This document shows, piece by piece, positions 447-11,243 of a DNA stretch of 50,378 nt (its first letter is position 1; each line of letters begins with the position of its first letter). A program made the translations under genes and the position numbers. Below the pieces are notes generated by a model. The model saw only the letters and a list, made by a program, of their open reading frames with translations. It made no database searches and was not told where the DNA came from. Origin of the DNA: Promethearchaeota archaeon (lineage in GTDB: Archaea > Asgardarchaeota > Lokiarchaeia > Sigyniarchaeales > SOKP01); contig JBHLNF010000018.1 in assembly GCA_048937405.1 (NCBI GenBank), positions 1-50,378 on the forward strand, read 5' to 3'.

Positions 447-1286
447 TTAATTTCTCAAGAAGTCAACTATAATTTGATTAATTTCTGGAGCTTTTTCAAA
501 AGGAGAAGAGTGTCCAACGCCTTCAAGTACAATAAATTTGCTATTTGAAATACCTTCATGAATTTTCATATTTACTAATTTTGGCATTTGTCGATCTTTT
601 TCAGCACAGATAATTAACGTTTCAGAACTAATCATATGCAAACTTTCTAAAACATTATGAGTACCAAGAGCGTGAGCTTGATTTCTAATATCTTGAGGAG
701 TTGCTGGATTAATTATACTTTTATTAATTAAATCTTCTGCTGAGAATAGTCCATGGAATTTCTTTTTCGGACTTTCTTTCATTAATTTTAAAAAATTACG
801 GGAAAATCCCATTTTTGCTGCATCAAAGAAAGTTTTAACCGGATCTTTTAATCTTGCTTCATATCTAGCAATTTGTCCATTTTTATAGAGTTCTAATCCA
901 GATTTTTCTTCAGGCCAAGCAGCCATAGTGTTTATCAAGATTAATTTATTTACTCTTTCAGGATATTTTATCGCAAAATGTTGAGAAATCATACCACCTA
1001 CAGACCAACCTACTATGTGTGCTTTCTCAATCTTTAAAAAGTCCATCAAACTTTTAGTATCATCAGCAAACAGTTCCATAGTATATGGTTCATTAGGTCT
1101 ATCAGATTTTCCTGAACCTCGATTATCAAATCTTAGTACCTTAAAATATTGAGATAATGGTTCAAATTGACAAAGCCATTCCTCTTTAGTAACCCCAAAT
1201 CCATGGATTAGAATAACTGGATTACCCTCTCCACGAACTTCATAACAAATTTTTATATCATTAATATTTGCATAAGATTCAGTCAT
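447..1286 (-). CDS. Alpha/beta fold hydrolase
   Basis: LIHGF oxyanion motif, DNRGSGKSD, nucleophile elbow GWSVG, Asp in EKDR, His in GVGHS. Confidence 0.92.
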   Translation of the reverse strand: MTESYANINDIKICYEVRGEGNPVILIHGFGVTKEEWLCQFEPLSQYFKVLRFDNRGSGKSDRPNEPYTMELFADDTKSLMDFLKIEKAHIVGWSVGGMISQHFAIKYPERVNKLILINTMAAWPEEKSGLELYKNGQIARYEARLKDPVKTFFDAAKMGFSRNFLKLMKESPKKKFHGLFSAEDLINKSIINPATPQDIRNQAHALGTHNVLESLHMISSETLIICAEKDRQMPKLVNMKIHEGISNSKFIVLEGVGHSSPFEKAPEINQIIVDFLRN

Positions 1287-1316
1287 AACTTTTAAAAAAG
1301 TAGAATAATAATAAAT

Positions 1317-2153
1317 TTATTCTTTTAAAAAGGCTATTAAAGAATTATTTACTTCTGGAGCATTCTCCAATGGAAGATAATGCCCTCCATTAAATATAAT
1401 CAATTTACTTCTTTTTAACTTGCTATTTAATTCTAAACTTACACTTTTGGGGGATATTCTATCTTTTTCTCCAGCAAGTATTAACACTTCATTTGATATT
1501 TCATGGATTTTATCAATTGTATTTAATTCTGCTATCGCATTGATTCTATTCTCAATATCATGTGGTTGTGAAGTATCATTAAAAACTAAGTTCATTAAAT
1601 CATTTGTATTGAAGATTCTATGAAATTTTTCATATGGACTTTCTACTAATTGTTTGTAAAATTTTCTAGAAAACCTTAGTTTCATTTTTGAGAAAAAAGC
1701 ATTTTCAGGATTCTTTTGTTTCTCTTCATGGAAAGCTAACTGACTTCTCTTAAACATTTCTAGCCCAGATTTATCTACTGGAATTTTTGTAAGAGCTGCG
1801 ATGAGTACGACTTTGTCTATCCGTTTAGGATATTGTATTACTAAATATTGGGCTATCATTGCGCCAGTAGCCCAACCAATTACATGGGCTTTTTCAATTT
1901 CTAAATAATCCATTAGATTTTTGACATCATTTGCTAGATCTTCTAATTTATAAGGCTCTTTTGGGTGATCTGATCTACCTGATCCTCGATTATCTAATGA
2001 TATCACCTTAAAATGTTCTGCTAATTCAGGAATTTGTGCTAACCAAAATCCTTTATGTAAACCAAAACCATGAATTAAAATAACTGGGTATCCATCTCCA
2101 TGAAGTTCATAGCAAATTCTAATTCCGTTTACTTCTGCAAATAAATCGACCAT
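1317..2153 (-). CDS. Alpha/beta fold hydrolase paralog with Ser-to-Ala at the nucleophile
   Basis: LIHGF, DNRGSGRSD, elbow reads GWATG, EKDR, GGHY; colinear with the neighbouring hydrolase. Confidence 0.88.
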   Translation of the reverse strand: MVDLFAEVNGIRICYELHGDGYPVILIHGFGLHKGFWLAQIPELAEHFKVISLDNRGSGRSDHPKEPYKLEDLANDVKNLMDYLEIEKAHVIGWATGAMIAQYLVIQYPKRIDKVVLIAALTKIPVDKSGLEMFKRSQLAFHEEKQKNPENAFFSKMKLRFSRKFYKQLVESPYEKFHRIFNTNDLMNLVFNDTSQPHDIENRINAIAELNTIDKIHEISNEVLILAGEKDRISPKSVSLELNSKLKRSKLIIFNGGHYLPLENAPEVNNSLIAFLKE

Positions 2154-3378: not shown

Positions 3379-4194
3379 TTAAGGAGCAACTATTAAAATA
3401 ATCATATACACAAGCATTAAATTACCTAAAATGATTCCAGTATCTTTTAAGGACGTTTTTCCTAATAAAGTAGTCCTAGGCTTTCTATAGATATACATAA
3501 TTCCCAATGGAAAAAATACAATTGGAATAAATATCCAATATTGAGTAATAATGAATGAAATGATTGAAATAACTAATGAAAGTAAGCATGCAATCCAAAT
3601 TACCAATTGAGACGACTTAGGCTTTAGTTTTGCTAATGAATCTCCATCAATCATTTCATGTACCATCTGTCCTGTAAATGCTACAGCAGTTATAGCTGCT
3701 AAAATTAATGATTCATACAATTGCATTCGTGGAAGAAAATTGAAAATAATATCCCCGGCATTAATTTTAATCATAAAATATGGTAAAATTATGTGAGAGG
3801 TTCCTAAAATAATATGGTTAATAACAACAAGCCTTTTGAACAAACAATAGAAAATTACCAAAAATATAATCATAACTAAATAAATTCCTAGAATTGGATT
3901 CACTAAAATATCATTCATAAAACACATTGAGCCTAACAAAAAACTTGCAATAGCAAGTACAGCAATTTCTTTTCTACCATATCCTTCGACTCTTTCCAAC
4001 GTTTCCTTTTCATTAAGATCCTTCATATCAATAACATCATTAAGAGTATTTCCTGTAATAGCATAAAAAGCAAATCCTGATAATATCCAAATATTAGAAC
4101 GTAATTCATAATTATTCAAATATATACACAAAAGACATGGTATTAATACAGAAAAAAGATATTCTAAACGAAGTAGTCTAAATCCTTTACTCAT
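3379..4194 (-). CDS. UbiA family prenyltransferase
   Basis: N-terminal LLRL, Asp-rich NTLNDVIDMKD, degenerate second motif HEMIDGD, multiple TM helices. Confidence 0.7.
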   Translation of the reverse strand: MSKGFRLLRLEYLFSVLIPCLLCIYLNNYELRSNIWILSGFAFYAITGNTLNDVIDMKDLNEKETLERVEGYGRKEIAVLAIASFLLGSMCFMNDILVNPILGIYLVMIIFLVIFYCLFKRLVVINHIILGTSHIILPYFMIKINAGDIIFNFLPRMQLYESLILAAITAVAFTGQMVHEMIDGDSLAKLKPKSSQLVIWIACLLSLVISIISFIITQYWIFIPIVFFPLGIMYIYRKPRTTLLGKTSLKDTGIILGNLMLVYMIILIVAP

Positions 4195-5844: not shown

Positions 5845-8800
5845 TTATCTAGTACTTTGAATAAATTGTACTTCTTTCTTTTGTTCATTTTCCCATTTTT
5901 TACGTTCTGAACGCAACTTGAAAAGATCAATATCTTTATATATCAAACCTTCTTCTTCTGCGGGAATAGTTCTTTCAGTACGATCTTTTTCAGGAGTATA
6001 TATTAAAGAATCGCCGAATTCAGCCACATTGGCAAAAAAACAGTAAGCATAGATAGATCTTCGGGCATCGAAATGTGCCGCTTCAAAATCAGCAGTGACG
6101 GGAGTGAATGCTGGATTAATAATAATATCTACTGGTGGTTCAAAATTCTTTAATTCTACTCTTAAATCCATATCCAGAAAGTCTCGACATATAGCAATAG
6201 CGATTCTTCCATATTCAGTATTACAGACTAATATTTTTTGAGGTCCTGAGGTGATCTCTATAGCTTCTTTAAACTTTTTTTCTTTAAAGTGAATTATTGC
6301 AGGAATGTGTTTTTCTTGTTTCCATAGAATTTTTTCAGGTGAGACAACCATACAAATATTTTGTTTTGTTTCTTGATCATGATAGGAACCAGGAATAATA
6401 TACATATTATAATTCTTAGCAAGATTTGATATCTCTTCTATAAATTCTCTATAGTTTAAATCTATAGTCATTTCTGGAAAAATTAGAATATTAACTTTAT
6501 TTTTGCTAGCATCATCGACCATGTCTTTTACTTTATTTCTCACAGTATTTACTTTATTCCTCTTAAGACCCAATAGTCCAGAGGATTTCTCTTCATAAAA
6601 TTCTGTTATAATATCACCTGATTCTGATAAACCAATTTGAGCAATCCCTATTCTAAATTGACTTTTTTGGATTTTTGACTCTTGTTTAAGGAAATCTGTA
6701 TATATTATTTCATACTTTTTTCTTTCTATTCTCTCTATTACTATCTGTCTTTCTTTTTCAGTGAACTGACGCGCTTCGCCTAACCTTGGAGATTGACTAC
6801 TTTCGATAGGACAAGAAGGAGCATATATACCAATAGTACTTCGGGAAATTGAAGGCTCTTTTATAGTATTTAAAGCGGAAAAAAGTATTGATTCTTCCCG
6901 TTCTACTCTATTTAATCGATCCTGAACCTCTTTCTTTTTATCTCTATAACCTGCTTTGCCAAATAATTCAATTGCTGATTTTAAATATTTTGCGCCTATT
7001 CCTAAGAGTTTTCCTTTTTTCTGAAGATCTGCTTCTTCGTCAGCCCTAATTAGGTTCCATGCGGCATCAAAATATATAGAGGTCGCTTGAGCCCAATCGG
7101 CACCACTTTTAAAACCTCCTTTTTCATATGACGTAGCTGCTTTACTAAGATTCAATTTAACTTTTGGATATAAATCTGTTTTGATTTCTATCCTAATTGC
7201 ACCATCAAATTTACAACCATTTTCAAGAGCTTGACAAAAAGCTGAATTTCCAGAAGCTAATAATTTTAATTTTATATCAGTAAAAAGACTACTGGCTTTT
7301 GTAAATAATTTCGCTGCTTCTGAAAATCTTTCAGGATCTTCATGTATTTCAGCAATTTCCATATTTTCCCAAGCTTTACACAAGAAATAAACTGCTTCCA
7401 ATTCTTCTCGTTCTTTCTCAATTTTAAAGAGAAAGCAAATATCTCTAAATTGTGAAGAAGCAAGCGCGAATTTTTCCGCAGCAGCGATATGCTCTCCTTG
7501 CTTTCCTAAGATTCTTGCTTCTTCAAGGTTTATTCTAGAGGTACAATAATTCATCCTTACGTGAGCAACTTTTTCAAGTTTAATAATTCTCTCTCTTTCA
7601 AATTTTTCTCTGGATTTCTCATGAGAAATTTCTAATGCACTAATAGCTTTCTTAAAAGTTTCTGCTGTCTCTTTAAATCTTTCTATAGCTTCTTCATGAT
7701 TTTCTTGTTTACTTAGTTGCTCTGCCTCCTCCAATAAAATCCAACTAAAATAATAGGAAGCCTCATAGCTATAACTTGATAATTTAATTAAAACATCATA
7801 AGCTTTTTCATACTGTTTCTTGGCTTGTAAATGATTTTCTCGGATATGAAACGATTTAGCTTCTTCAATAAAAGTCCAAGCCTTAACATAGTTATGTTTC
7901 TCGGTTGTTCTATTTTTTAGCAGCTTATACTTTATCAATTTCAGTGACTTATTATAAGCTTCTTGAGCTTTCTTATAATTTTCTGCAGAAAGCATATAAT
8001 TACCCAAACGATCTTCTATACGAGCTATATACTGATAACTCGCCGCTTCATAAAAAAAGAATCTTCTATCAACACTCTCTTTTATTGTGTGGAGAAAAAT
8101 TTCCCGTGCTTGAATTAAAATAGTTTTTTCTCCCGTTATAATCCCTAATTCCTCAAATAATAATCCTAGCCTCATTCGCTCTGTAAGAGCACCGGATCGA
8201 GATAAAATAGCATAACTGGTTAATTTATTTTGAGCTTCTATTGCCTTTTTAAGATTTGTGATCCTTTCTTCCTTCTCTTTAGCGATATCTGCAAGTGTTT
8301 TATAGGCTTTATAAAGACTTGTATAACCACTAGCTCGAGGAAATCCTCCCTCATATTTTAAACCGAATTTTTCTGCCTGGATAGCATGCTGAAGCATAAT
8401 TTGGGCATATTCACCTTGTTTTGTTTTTGATTCCGCGAGAATAGCAAGTTGAGAATAAGCTAATATCAAACATTCGTATACCCATGATAAAATATTAGGG
8501 ATATGAGGAGAACTCATCGCTGCTTTTGCATGTTGTATCGCTTTTTCAGCATAGATTTTGCGTTGTGCAGCAGTAAAAAAACTCCTCTGAGAAGAAGTAG
8601 TATAATAAAGTGCAGATAATACATTTCCTAGAGAACGATAAAAAATATAAGAATGTGCATAGATTTTTCCTAATTCTATGCAGTCTTTGATGTCATTAAG
8701 AATTCTCTTTTGAAGATAATTGACTTTGCCACCGTAAAGTGCAAAATAATCTATGAAAAATATACATAATAATATGTTAATTTTACTTTTCGTTTTTCTG

Positions 8801-9702
8801 GCAAAATTTAAAGCTTTCTCTAATAATTTTATTCCCCTATCTAGGTAATCTTCTTGTTCTCTTTCATCTTCAACAAATTGATATCCAAAATAGCAATAAT
8901 AAGCTCCCATAGCTTGGTAAATTAAATTATATGCCCAAGAATCATCTAAGTTATCAATAAATGTAATAGTATTCTTGCATTTTGCCAAGAATTTCTTAGT
9001 ATCCTCGATAGAAATGTATATATTTTTTTTAAAATCTTTAACTATTGTTAGATTGAAACCGATTATAAATTCCATATATAATGAGTCAGCCAGAATTTGA
9101 ATATTTCCAATTTTTTTTAAGATTTCCCAAGCTTTTTGAGCAGATTCAATTCCTTGCTGAGCAATCCGATCATATTCTTCTTTACTGATGTTATAAGTCA
9201 TAAGGAGAAATGAAGCATCTGCTATACATCCCAGTACTCTCGCAAAACTCTCTTCATCACCCTCCTTAGAATAAATCTTACTTGATTCACTAAACAGTTT
9301 AATCGCCTGAACATATATTTTCTGAGCTTCTCCATCAGAAGTTGCAAGAAATCCACTTGTAAAAACTGTTTTTGCTTCGCATTCAATCTCTTCAGATCTA
9401 TTTCCAAGTTGTTTAAATAACTTTCTTGCATCCTTATAAGCCTTAATAGCACAATTTATGTGATTCAAATATTCCTCCGCAGTTTCTACCGTATCAGAAG
9501 CACGGACATGACTATACCCAAGCCTTTTATAACAATTAGCGGCTTTTTCAATTAAATTATTCTCTAAATAAAGTTTAACAGCTTTTTCATATAAGGTCGC
9601 CGCTTCAATCCAATTATAATTTTTTTCTTCCATTAATGCCTTTTCCAATAAATCTTCTTCTTGCGTTATTTCTGTCATCTGAGAGTTCAAGGATTTATTC
9701 AA
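5845..9702 (-). CDS. TPR/alpha-SNAP-like solenoid protein with C-terminal carbon-nitrogen hydrolase (nitrilase) domain
   Basis: About 950 aa of AA..Y/F..A helical repeats; C-terminal RIGIAQ, LIFPEM (Glu), QEKHIP (Lys), IAICRDF (Cys); TTG start. Confidence 0.85.
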   Translation of the reverse strand: MNKSLNSQMTEITQEEDLLEKALMEEKNYNWIEAATLYEKAVKLYLENNLIEKAANCYKRLGYSHVRASDTVETAEEYLNHINCAIKAYKDARKLFKQLGNRSEEIECEAKTVFTSGFLATSDGEAQKIYVQAIKLFSESSKIYSKEGDEESFARVLGCIADASFLLMTYNISKEEYDRIAQQGIESAQKAWEILKKIGNIQILADSLYMEFIIGFNLTIVKDFKKNIYISIEDTKKFLAKCKNTITFIDNLDDSWAYNLIYQAMGAYYCYFGYQFVEDEREQEDYLDRGIKLLEKALNFARKTKSKINILLCIFFIDYFALYGGKVNYLQKRILNDIKDCIELGKIYAHSYIFYRSLGNVLSALYYTTSSQRSFFTAAQRKIYAEKAIQHAKAAMSSPHIPNILSWVYECLILAYSQLAILAESKTKQGEYAQIMLQHAIQAEKFGLKYEGGFPRASGYTSLYKAYKTLADIAKEKEERITNLKKAIEAQNKLTSYAILSRSGALTERMRLGLLFEELGIITGEKTILIQAREIFLHTIKESVDRRFFFYEAASYQYIARIEDRLGNYMLSAENYKKAQEAYNKSLKLIKYKLLKNRTTEKHNYVKAWTFIEEAKSFHIRENHLQAKKQYEKAYDVLIKLSSYSYEASYYFSWILLEEAEQLSKQENHEEAIERFKETAETFKKAISALEISHEKSREKFERERIIKLEKVAHVRMNYCTSRINLEEARILGKQGEHIAAAEKFALASSQFRDICFLFKIEKEREELEAVYFLCKAWENMEIAEIHEDPERFSEAAKLFTKASSLFTDIKLKLLASGNSAFCQALENGCKFDGAIRIEIKTDLYPKVKLNLSKAATSYEKGGFKSGADWAQATSIYFDAAWNLIRADEEADLQKKGKLLGIGAKYLKSAIELFGKAGYRDKKKEVQDRLNRVEREESILFSALNTIKEPSISRSTIGIYAPSCPIESSQSPRLGEARQFTEKERQIVIERIERKKYEIIYTDFLKQESKIQKSQFRIGIAQIGLSESGDIITEFYEEKSSGLLGLKRNKVNTVRNKVKDMVDDASKNKVNILIFPEMTIDLNYREFIEEISNLAKNYNMYIIPGSYHDQETKQNICMVVSPEKILWKQEKHIPAIIHFKEKKFKEAIEITSGPQKILVCNTEYGRIAIAICRDFLDMDLRVELKNFEPPVDIIINPAFTPVTADFEAAHFDARRSIYAYCFFANVAEFGDSLIYTPEKDRTERTIPAEEEGLIYKDIDLFKLRSERKKWENEQKKEVQFIQSTR

Positions 9703-9840: not shown

Positions 9841-10935
9841 TTACTTTCGAATTACCCATATACTACTCCCACCCTCCTTGATAAATTCTGATCTTGTAAA
9901 GGAGGTCGAATCAATAAACTCTCGAAGGGTTTTTTCATTATAAAAAAATGAAGCTTTAACTTCTGTAAACTTATGAGTGATATCAAAAAGTTCAAATCTT
10001 TTTTTTGGGGCAAAAGTATCAGGAATCATACTTTCTCCAATAAGCAACATCCCTTCATCATCCAATAATGAATATAAATTGTTAAAAACACTTACTCGAT
10101 ATTTCTCATCAGTATTCATTTCATGAAGAACTTGATTTAAGATGATTAAATCAAATTTCTCTTTATAGAATTGTGTAAATTCATCAATTGTAGTCTCAAA
10201 AATCTCTATTCTTTTATTCCAATTATTTCTACTAATTAATTCTTTTGCGTGTGCTATTGCAATAGGATCTATATCAATTCCTATAAATCTTGCTTTGCCG
10301 TACTTTTTTGCCCAAGTTTCAAGATTAAATCCATAACCACATCCTAGTTCAAAAACAGTACCTGCTTCTCGAATTTTTTCGCAAAAATTCTCAAATTTCT
10401 TAGAAAATAATCTTTCTGCTAAAGCCCCAAACCTAGCACCACGTTCTTGTAGATCCTTTATAGCATTCCCTGATAAATCCAATATGCTCCATACTTTACC
10501 AGTTCTAAAATACTCTATTAAAATATCCTGACTTGGAGCAATATAATAGAATGCACCAAGAGTCCCTCCAAGGTAAGATTCATTATTTCGGTCAATAAGT
10601 AATTCATATATGAAAGGAGCTGTTTTTAAAATTTTGGATTCAGAATTCTCAATCTCGAGTATCCCACATTCAAGTGCTAAATGAATCCAACCATCTAAAT
10701 ACTTAAAATCCAAACCTAATTTTTCAGATAGTTCAATTGGAGTAAAAAATATTTCAATTTTTTTATCAGAACTAATGGATAATTTGGCTTTTTCATATAA
10801 ATAGTTAAAAATACCTAAACGTCTTCCCATACCAATTAATATTATTGTATTAAATCCGTAAAGACCATTTATCGCAAATTTTTTTATTTGATCATTAATA
10901 GAAACTTCAAGATTTTCTTTATTTTCAGTGTTAAT
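9841..10935 (-). CDS. Class I SAM methyltransferase with N-terminal winged-helix domain (Rv2258c-like); probable ATT start at 10935
   Basis: ELGCGYG, GIDID, QVLHEM; GRRLGIF...ELSEKLGLD...W wHTH; frame open 35 codons upstream of the ATG at 10830 up to an ATT 6 nt after GGTGA. Confidence 0.85.
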   Translation of the reverse strand: MNTENKENLEVSINDQIKKFAINGLYGFNTIILIGMGRRLGIFNYLYEKAKLSISSDKKIEIFFTPIELSEKLGLDFKYLDGWIHLALECGILEIENSESKILKTAPFIYELLIDRNNESYLGGTLGAFYYIAPSQDILIEYFRTGKVWSILDLSGNAIKDLQERGARFGALAERLFSKKFENFCEKIREAGTVFELGCGYGFNLETWAKKYGKARFIGIDIDPIAIAHAKELISRNNWNKRIEIFETTIDEFTQFYKEKFDLIILNQVLHEMNTDEKYRVSVFNNLYSLLDDEGMLLIGESMIPDTFAPKKRFELFDITHKFTEVKASFFYNEKTLREFIDSTSFTRSEFIKEGGSSIWVIRK

Positions 10936-11012: not shown

Positions 11013-11243
11013 TTAAATTTCTTTCAGAGTTATAACTTCCTCTGGTAAAAATGATTTAAAAATATCGCTTAATTTCCTATTATCTTCAATTGGAATCCCC
11101 CTTATTTGAAATTGAGATCTTTTCAATGGGTCGGTTTTCCAATCGAACTCTGCTAGAAGATAAGGTTTGATGTTAAAGAATTTATCTTCTGGATCAAGCA
11201 TGAAATCGTCCATAAGTGTTTCAAGATCTTTAACTTTTACCAT
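11013..11243 (-). CDS. Ubiquitin-like (beta-grasp) protein, 76 aa, no C-terminal Gly-Gly
   Basis: Manual alignment to ubiquitin: VKVKDL/IFVKTL, LDPEDKFFNIK/VEPSDTIENVK, GIPIEDNRKLSD/GKQLEDGRTLSD. Confidence 0.65.
   Translation of the reverse strand: MVKVKDLETLMDDFMLDPEDKFFNIKPYLLAEFDWKTDPLKRSQFQIRGIPIEDNRKLSDIFKSFLPEEVITLKEI

Follow-up and report, generated by a model that had tools for sequence, protein, structure and literature searches.

What does a giant helical-repeat protein that ends in a nitrilase do in an Asgard archaeon? The question is raised by a gene on the reverse strand at positions 5845 to 9702 of a 50,378-nucleotide stretch from Promethearchaeota archaeon (Lokiarchaeia; assembly GCA_048937405.1, contig JBHLNF010000018.1, positions 1 to 50,378 of the forward strand), to which we refer, in its entirety, as the window. 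Our analysis confirms that this gene encodes a helical solenoid, a linker, and a nitrilase domain in one open reading frame (ORF). We give a little better than an even chance to the reading that its product is a one-polypeptide sensor-effector, in which a trigger-bound solenoid would lead to an assembly-activated nitrilase that hydrolyzes an essential molecule. The family to which it belongs is probably an Asgard-specific conflict family with an antiviral role.

The coding region is a single uninterrupted ORF of 1,285 codons, from a TTG at 9702 to a stop codon at 5845-5847, in AT-rich surroundings (G+C of ∼30%), and no overlapping ORF of ≥80 amino acids (aa) lies across 5845-9702. Homologues, alignments, and the database copy P0002 start at Met9 of this ORF, which makes the ATG at 9678 the most likely start codon of a protein of 1,277 aa; the codons at 9679-9702 are probably untranslated. 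Residue numbers nevertheless count from the TTG throughout, such that the likely start is residue 9. An earlier note on this DNA, made from the letters alone, had described a solenoid, a Pro/Ser linker, and an intact nitrilase in one protein, and ORF structure, Pfam, and AlphaFold2 (AF2) agree on this point; modeling each part with AlphaFold, as the note had proposed, yielded both a solenoid and a nitrilase fold. The note had also allowed for a fusion created by misassembly and absent from other genomes. We can discard such a chimera: among 5.8 billion clustered proteins there are hundreds of homologues of ∼1,276 aa with 50 to 90% identity over 99% of the length, in independent Asgard metagenome-assembled genomes (MAGs) labeled Promethearchaeota, Thor-, Hermod-, and Hodarchaeota.

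The C-terminal module is a nitrilase-superfamily (C-N hydrolase) domain by every measure that we applied. The Pfam model CN_hydrolase (PF00795) matches residues 1055-1265 with 41.8 bits against a cutoff of 23.2, and the last 325 residues adopt the four-layer, alpha-beta-beta-alpha nitrilase fold in an AF2 model with a predicted local distance difference test score (pLDDT) of 80 and a predicted TM-score of 0.81. The best Foldseek match is mouse Nit2 (9e-16, 20% identity), and 213 nitrilase-type structures in the PDB match at E ≤1e-3. The Glu-Lys-Cys triad that had been read from the sequence is indeed intact and is joined by a second glutamate, giving a tetrad of E1077 (FPE), K1131 (EKH), E1146 (FKE), and C1172 (ICRD) that is invariant in 20 aligned relatives; in the Nit2 alignment the motifs of the lysine, the second glutamate, and the cysteine lie opposite HRKiH, FQE, and ICYD, and the glutamate of FPE falls outside the aligned span. 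The protein closes with a conserved tail, F-IQSTR, of which the F and the S are invariant and the other four positions are ≥90% conserved.

This nitrilase belongs, as comparison with reference models supports, with defense-associated nitrilases and not with metabolic ones. Searched on its own against PADLOC, the domain matched CARF_nitrilase (3e-19), RTasNitrilase (6.5e-17), RT_UG5-nitrilase (1.4e-15), and Drt1a (1.4e-5), the match to CARF_nitrilase being restricted to the nitrilase part of that model (positions 214-393). The same genome provides a control, as its three other CN_hydrolases, which score 88 to 154 bits in Pfam, match no PADLOC model at E ≤1; NCBIfam models of metabolic nitrilases, for their part, remain far under their cutoff with our domain (17.6 bits versus 410). 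Grouping with ordinary metabolic amidases, which the earlier note had named as the outcome that would overturn its interpretation, is thus ruled out by the PADLOC control together with the NCBIfam scores. The domain is also rare: a search of 1.84 billion representative proteins yields no more than 389 matches at E ≤1e-3, with a sharp drop beyond ∼50 close family members. One of the nearest outgroup proteins (P0186) matches the RTasNitrilase model at 3.6e-44, and others are fusions to HEAT repeats and an nSTAND3 NTPase. The family profile aligns colinearly with residues 1113-1225 of the 1,229-residue DRT1 (PDB 9yfd), from the catalytic cysteine on, in a match that is marginal (E of 1.4e-3); a conserved C-terminal tail of DRT1 closes the active site of the neighboring protomer. 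In DRT1 the nitrilase is the effector, its activity requires assembly into a tetramer, and its substrate is still to be found (PMC13275509). The nitrilases of class 3 UG/Abi systems make up a clade of their own, distinct from metabolic nitrilases, and in these systems phosphohydrolase domains can stand in their place (PMC9226505). Nitrilases are listed among the cyclic-nucleotide effectors of type III CRISPR systems (PMC8157118).

Upstream of the enzyme, residues 11-939 form an unbroken alpha-solenoid of 37 helices, ∼930 residues long, with a mean pLDDT of 85 in an AF2 model built from a 22-sequence alignment. Neither Pfam, PADLOC, nor the AF2 model reveals a nucleoside triphosphatase (NTPase) or other domain embedded in it, and we therefore reject the idea of a hidden domain. 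Of the earlier label, a tetratricopeptide repeat (TPR)/alpha-SNAP-like solenoid, the first half is the better borne out. Pfam finds nothing upstream of the nitrilase except marginal SNAP, TPR, and MIT matches, of which that to alpha-SNAP (PF14938) reaches 27.4 bits against a cutoff of 25 and covers residues 25-192 only. At TM-scores of ≤0.33, the best Foldseek matches are long TPR superhelices, Ctr9, Ski3, and IFT-A subunits among them. With Pfam matches that are marginal or subthreshold and fold matches that are generic TPR, homology to alpha-SNAP or MIT appears doubtful, and the modeled solenoid is best described as a generic long TPR-like superhelix.

The two halves of this solenoid have evolved very differently. 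Identity was measured between the window protein and 75 full-length relatives, and the ratio of nonsynonymous to synonymous substitution rates (dN/dS) was calculated by the Nei-Gojobori method for 13 close pairs of 83 to 99% identity. Residues 9-450 have a mean identity of 39% and a median dN/dS of ∼0.37 (range of 0.29 to 0.94), the rest of the solenoid has a mean identity of 60% (residues 451-960) and a median dN/dS of ∼0.15 (residues 451-940), and the nitrilase (residues 1000-1285) has an identity of 72% and a median dN/dS of ∼0.12. The dN/dS of the N-terminal arm is thus ∼3 times that of the enzyme, while the strong purifying selection on the nitrilase argues that the enzyme is functional. 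Column conservation is lowest at residues 130-330 and reaches 75 to 80% at residues 730-970. The helices of residues 9-450 are modeled with a pLDDT of >90, and this arm is a candidate ligand-sensing region. Divergence in the arm is also apparent among tandem paralogues, most extremely in one case: the fourth tandem copy in genome G192 (L012:16746-18001 continuing in L021:746-4594) is 51% identical to the window protein as a whole and 32% identical over its first ∼417 residues. Separately, ORFs of 334 to 482 aa in three genomes (G245:C1:1617032-1618282, G299:C23:2977-3924, and G099:C189:5074-6042) match only the first 330 to 430 solenoid residues, with 34 to 36% identity; they could represent the N-terminal arm as a free-standing protein.

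That the solenoid might belong to a family with exchangeable C-terminal domains had been raised from the sequence, and a search for the same solenoid and linker joined to other C termini bore this out. In four relatives they end in TIR_2, and in others they carry a calcineurin-like metallophosphoesterase, a Cys-rich, Zn-ribbon-like module of ∼50 residues, or a module of ∼130 residues that a language-model search placed near archaeal Roadblock/LAMTOR2-longin proteins; we treat the roadblock/longin-like identity of this last module as a lead only. The exchange runs in the other direction as well. In other Asgard lineages, the nitrilase module, at 59 to 69% identity, sits on MalT-like TPR, a right-handed beta-helix (NosD), or an alpha/beta-hydrolase, and remote nitrilase relatives (25 to 35% identity) are found on HEAT repeats or N-terminal to an nSTAND3 NTPase (P0205).

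The linker is the junction at which these modules are exchanged. The stretch after the solenoid is disordered in the AF2 model (pLDDT of <50) and includes the linker quoted in the earlier note (EPSISRSTIGIYAPSCPIESS, residues 949-969). It carries a conserved motif, EPSISRS...APSCPIE(S/T)SQSPR, of which the residues P, S, G, I, P, C, E, S, S, and P are invariant across the nitrilase, TIR, phosphoesterase, and other variants. The window gene itself was put together here. In sliding windows of identity, the protein is closest to one set of relatives (group A, 75 to 90%) upstream of residues ∼975-990 and to another (group B, 80 to 98%) downstream; among the members of group B are the UbiA-proximal G121 copy and L023, a single-copy gene from the same site. 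A switch this sharp indicates that the window gene is a recombinant with its crossover just past the linker motif, at the module-exchange junction. Across the 75 relatives, identity in the nitrilase does not follow that in the solenoid (r = -0.24), whereas the two solenoid halves are correlated (r = 0.89). Synonymous divergence differs several-fold between regions of one pair; the uncorrelated identities and the uneven synonymous divergence point to mosaic histories.

The family is patchily distributed and turns over at the site occupied in the window. In species-representative genomes the nitrilase module has 251 relatives; among the top 80, two contigs are filed elsewhere and all the others belong to Asgard records. 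The family is present in 109 of 301 sampled Asgard genomes, in 35 of the 90 of good quality, and in 15 of 70 genera, often in ≥2 copies; the window's genome has one. The two contigs filed elsewhere, L036 (DATKTW010000007.1, "Candidatus Nanopelagicaceae bacterium") and L069 (JAFCGI010000032.1, "Candidatus Pacearchaeota"), carry full solenoid-nitrilase genes, and the L036 protein is 99.1% identical to a Promethearchaeota gene in L035; both are probably binning contaminants rather than transfers.

Alignment of the same flanking genes (a methyltransferase on one side, UbiA/AbrB on the other) across relatives identified a copy-number hotspot. Three genomes of the window's own genus (G225, G273, and G216; L018, L019, and L020) have no solenoid gene between these flanks. 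One such gene, with the Cys-rich, Zn-ribbon-like C terminus, is present in G252 (L006), two in G065 (L007; one TIR, one nitrilase), three in G121 (L011), and five in G192 (L012 and L021; four nitrilase, one other). A cassette of JAB, E1, and E2 genes replaces the methyltransferase side in two of these genomes, G065 and G121, so that only the UbiA boundary is shared there. Spacers within the arrays are 130 to 220 bp long and contain no ORF. At the empty site of the closest relative, whose flanks are 85 to 96% identical in protein, a degenerate remnant of the gene's last codons remains, and the gene was therefore lost there by deletion. Coordinates of the gene, its parts, and the hotspot boundaries are collected in Table 1.

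Table 1. Positions in the window of the solenoid-nitrilase gene, its parts, and the neighboring genes that delimit or occupy the hotspot.
Feature	Residues	Position	Strand	Basis or remark
Solenoid-nitrilase coding sequence	1,277 aa	5845..9678	-	ORF and homologue starts; from likely ATG to stop
Eight in-frame codons from upstream TTG		9679..9702	-	Homologue alignments begin at ORF residues 7-9
Variable N-terminal solenoid half	9-450	8353..9678	-	Mean identity, conservation minimum, dN/dS
Conserved C-terminal solenoid half	451-940	6883..8352	-	Mean identity, dN/dS
Disordered linker	941-999	6706..6882	-	pLDDT; conserved motif at 6775-6858
Recombination crossover	∼975-990	6733..6780	-	Sliding-window identity switch
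Nitrilase-superfamily (C-N hydrolase) module	1000-1285	5848..6705	-	Pfam, PADLOC, AF2, Foldseek, invariant tetrad
Catalytic codon	E1077	6472-6474	-	Alignment
Catalytic codon	K1131	6310-6312	-	Alignment
Catalytic codon	E1146	6265-6267	-	Alignment
Catalytic codon	C1172	6187-6189	-	Alignment
C-terminal tail F-IQSTR		5848..5865	-	Conservation
S-Adenosylmethionine (SAM) methyltransferase		9841..10830	-	Upstream hotspot boundary; present with or without solenoid genes
Protein with AbrB/MazE-type N-terminal domain	296 aa	4942..5832	+	Convergent with solenoid gene, 12 bp from its stop; variable hotspot occupant
UbiA-family prenyltransferase		3379..4194	-	Downstream hotspot boundary; flanking-gene alignment

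The AbrB-type protein of the hotspot has an uncharacterized C-terminal part of ∼240 residues and no PADLOC match. It recurs at L008:326-1216, L020:544-1431, and L021:7954-8841 and in L028, L041, and L089, in most cases in convergent orientation to the final solenoid gene. It is kept in G216, from which the solenoid gene has been deleted, and is missing from the empty sites of G225 and G273.

Around the gene in the window, and next to it in nine sampled loci of relatives, the immediate neighbors either have metabolic or housekeeping functions or are without a Pfam match; examples at the relatives' loci are an H+-pyrophosphatase, an enoyl-coenzyme A hydratase, a histone deacetylase, and methyltransferase-corrinoid genes. 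The same picture holds for the neighbors sampled in 12 loci. The order of TauE, a ubiquitin-like gene, and the methyltransferase upstream of the solenoid gene does not change among the same-genus loci examined, including those that lack solenoid genes. Since the ubiquitin-like gene and the methyltransferase are kept at solenoid-less sites (L018, L019, and L020), they are syntenic neighbors rather than partners, and a functional operon with them can be ruled out. The match of this methyltransferase to the PADLOC model "mad2" covers the SAM-binding core only. A tie between the window's two alpha/beta-hydrolase genes and the hydrolase-nitrilase fusions was likewise rejected, the identity being only 23% and generic. 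Tandem alpha/beta-hydrolase paralogues, of which the window has two (447-2153, reverse strand) and G273 three (L019:9616-12216), share no more than the fold (23% identity) with the P0157 hydrolase that is joined to the nitrilase module. Elsewhere, a classic-TPR form of the nitrilase protein (L013:5175-7817, forward strand) directly adjoins a histone-deacetylase-family gene (L013:4068-5102, reverse strand).

How might such a protein work? The TPR-like solenoid, above all its fast-evolving N-terminal half, would bind a foreign or stress-derived ligand, and binding would bring copies of the protein together. The C-terminal nitrilase would be active only once assembled, like other nitrilases and like the TIR domains that replace it, and would then hydrolyze a C-N bond of a conserved molecule that the cell cannot do without, so that the infected cell would be arrested. 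Nitrilases and TIR domains depend on oligomers for activity, and it is because of this dependence, and of the example of DRT1, that activation by assembly is proposed. We favor a sensor-effector because the gene is a patchy accessory gene with diversified tandem paralogues, turnover at a hotspot, a fast-evolving repeat arm, a conserved effector of the defense clade, and free effector exchange that extends to TIR; in combination, such features typify immune or conflict receptors. What we infer in this scheme is the role in immunity, its trigger, the activation by oligomerization, and the substrate. The suggestion of a sensor-gated effector made in the earlier note is supported by module swapping, kinship with defense nitrilases, copy-number turnover, mosaic recombination, and the fast N-terminal arm; for the companion suggestion, an Nta1-like protein-recognizing amidase or deamidase, we found no positive evidence, as Nta1 is not among the sequence or fold matches listed and replacement of the enzyme by TIR or phosphoesterase argues against a dedicated role of this kind. 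Its interpretation as a whole thus appears partly supported.

Several observations weigh against a sensor-effector. The variable arm has an average dN/dS below 1, which is compatible with relaxed constraint, and conservation of the C-terminal solenoid half and of the linker exceeds what a pure sensor would lead one to expect; these conserved parts may serve as an interface for assembly or as a site of processing or binding. The roadblock-like and Zn-ribbon-like C termini are of adaptor type and not toxic enzymes. Neither Pfam nor AF2 reveals an NTPase or other known switch in the protein, PADLOC matches nothing in the solenoid, IMG/VR viral contigs yielded no homologue, and no defense island was seen in the window or at nine relatives' loci, where genes were inspected and no statistical test was made. 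We are more reserved about a far-reaching form of the sensor-effector reading, in which the family comprises Asgard-restricted, NTPase-less innate-immune receptors whose giant TPR solenoid recognizes viral components, whose conserved, recombination-prone linker drives plug-in outputs (nitrilase, TIR, metallophosphoesterase, Zn-ribbon-like, and roadblock/longin-like), and whose nitrilase, after ligand-induced assembly, kills or arrests the cell through hydrolysis of an amide or nitrogen-containing metabolite that is essential; this form is plausible, and we place it somewhat short of an even chance.

Some of the same observations would be at home in other explanations. The protein could be a regulated enzyme or scaffold outside immunity, a signaling or stress hub whose solenoid would dock partners in the cell and whose output domain would modulate metabolism, a GTPase, or a membrane process. 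Housekeeping neighborhoods, a strongly conserved C-terminal solenoid half and linker, adaptor-type C termini such as the roadblock/longin-like module, and a solenoid fold resembling the eukaryotic scaffold TPR proteins Ctr9, Ski3, and IFT-A would all suit such a hub, although the fold resemblance is generic at TM-scores of this size. Presence/absence and variation from 0 to 5 copies inside one genus, an enzyme akin to defense nitrilases only, mosaic recombination, and the fast-evolving arm do not suit it, and we consider this explanation unlikely. A substrate-directed protein amidase or deamidase, in which the solenoid would recruit clients for Asn/Gln deamidation or isopeptide-like cleavage in an Asgard ubiquitin-like or N-degron-type pathway, is quite unlikely in our estimation. 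The nitrilase superfamily does include a protein amidase, Nta1, a tail-less ubiquitin-like gene lies 1.3 kb upstream of the solenoid gene (11013-11243, reverse strand), one C-terminal variant is the Cys-rich, Zn-ribbon-like module, and in two genomes from the same family a cassette of JAB, ThiF-type E1, and UQ_con E2 genes stands divergently beside the arrays (L011:17628-19638, forward strand, in G121; L007:761-2796, reverse strand, in G065). Against this, the ubiquitin-like gene and the methyltransferase stay where solenoid genes are absent, and a search for the L011 JAB-E1-E2 proteins in 79 further loci, with flanks reaching ∼3 kb upstream, recovered only L039, which is from the same G121 contig, so that a general linkage to the cassette, found in two genomes and in no other within the fetched flanks, is rejected. 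Among the matches listed, the nitrilase module occurs in 31 of the 76 genomes of a lineage in which an E2 is found in 1 of 76. Nta1 is absent from the PDB sequence matches and the Foldseek matches listed, and a dedicated amidase pathway would not be expected to see its enzyme replaced by TIR or phosphoesterase.

The arrays also recall polymorphic toxins of intercellular conflict, with a conserved carrier and junction motif, interchangeable C-terminal toxins, and tandem copies that would act as reservoirs of toxin cassettes; interchangeable enzymes do follow a conserved motif here, in tandem arrays, with recombination just past the motif. However, sequence inspection, Pfam, and AF2 show neither a signal peptide or transmembrane segment nor a secretion-associated domain, the N terminus looks cytoplasmic, and no small immunity gene follows each copy, the array spacers being free of ORFs. 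Moreover, variability peaks at the N terminus of the carrier and conservation in the "toxin", opposite to the pattern of polymorphic toxins, and we regard a toxin system of this kind as highly improbable. The scaffold and polymorphic-toxin explanations fit fewer of the observations than does a sensor-effector.

Should the sensor-effector reading prove correct, it would have several implications. The immunity of Asgard archaea, the closest prokaryotic relatives of eukaryotes, is scarcely known, and the family would be a large, lineage-specific receptor family built unlike STAND/NLR, CBASS (cyclic oligonucleotide-based antiphage signaling systems), or DRT, with 251 species-representative relatives and hundreds in metagenomes. 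It would provide a second setting, free of reverse transcriptase (RT), for an "immune" nitrilase and could help to find its substrate, which is still sought for DRT1. The linker-centered exchange of nitrilase, TIR, and phosphoesterase would amount to a natural experiment as to which effectors have an activation mode in common, and in the far-reaching form above the receptor logic would parallel that of eukaryotic repeat-plus-TIR receptors. Even if the sensor-effector reading proves incorrect, what remains is a giant protein, widespread and unannotated, that deserves a name.

Our literature search found no paper describing a solenoid-nitrilase family, and its place is best seen by comparison with known systems. 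Like DRT1 (UG1) and the class 3 UG/Abi RT-nitrilases, the window protein is a large single polypeptide with helical repeats before a C-terminal nitrilase that PADLOC places in the same divergent clade and that has an intact catalytic tetrad, and like class 3 UG/Abi proteins (PMC9226505), its family alternates nitrilase with a phosphoesterase/phosphohydrolase domain. Unlike in DRT1, however, neither Pfam nor PADLOC finds an RT in the protein or its neighbors, and the upstream 930 residues are all-helical repeats; moreover, DRT1 is bacterial, whereas this family is Asgard archaeal and has TIR, Zn-ribbon-like, and roadblock-like outputs in addition. CARF-nitrilase (PADLOC PDLC01989), an ancillary effector of type III CRISPR-Cas that is predicted to be activated by cyclic oligoadenylate, gave the best-scoring defense model, and in both cases the nitrilase is the output of a ligand sensor, the sensing being putative here (nitrilase effectors are mentioned in PMC8157118); the window protein differs in having no CARF domain and no cas gene nearby, its putative sensor being the solenoid. 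Metabolic enzymes such as Nit2, beta-ureidopropionase, amidases, and Nta1 share the alpha-beta-beta-alpha fold and the Glu-Lys-Glu-Cys tetrad, but at only 12 to 20% identity, and the window family is set apart as a patchy, module-swapping fusion to a giant solenoid. STAND/NLR-like proteins, including the nSTAND3-nitrilase P0205 with its remote relative of this nitrilase, have swappable effectors, repeat sensors, and clustered paralogues in common with the family, but the window protein lacks a P-loop NTPase (NACHT/NB-ARC/nSTAND) in Pfam or AF2. With no RT, CARF, or NTPase, it thus lies outside the DRT1/UG5 and CARF-nitrilase systems. DSR2-type proteins are single-protein sensor-effectors with an N-terminal SIR2, a long helical-repeat sensor, and no NTPase. 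They resemble the window protein in combining a long alpha-solenoid sensor and an assembly-activated effector in one polypeptide without an NTPase, a mode that we infer for the window protein, although there is no sequence relationship (the solenoid matches nothing in PADLOC) and the effector here is a C-terminal nitrilase. By analogy, then, the window protein would work most like single-protein solenoid sensor-effectors, with an effector from the clade that it shares with DRT1/UG5 and CARF-nitrilases.

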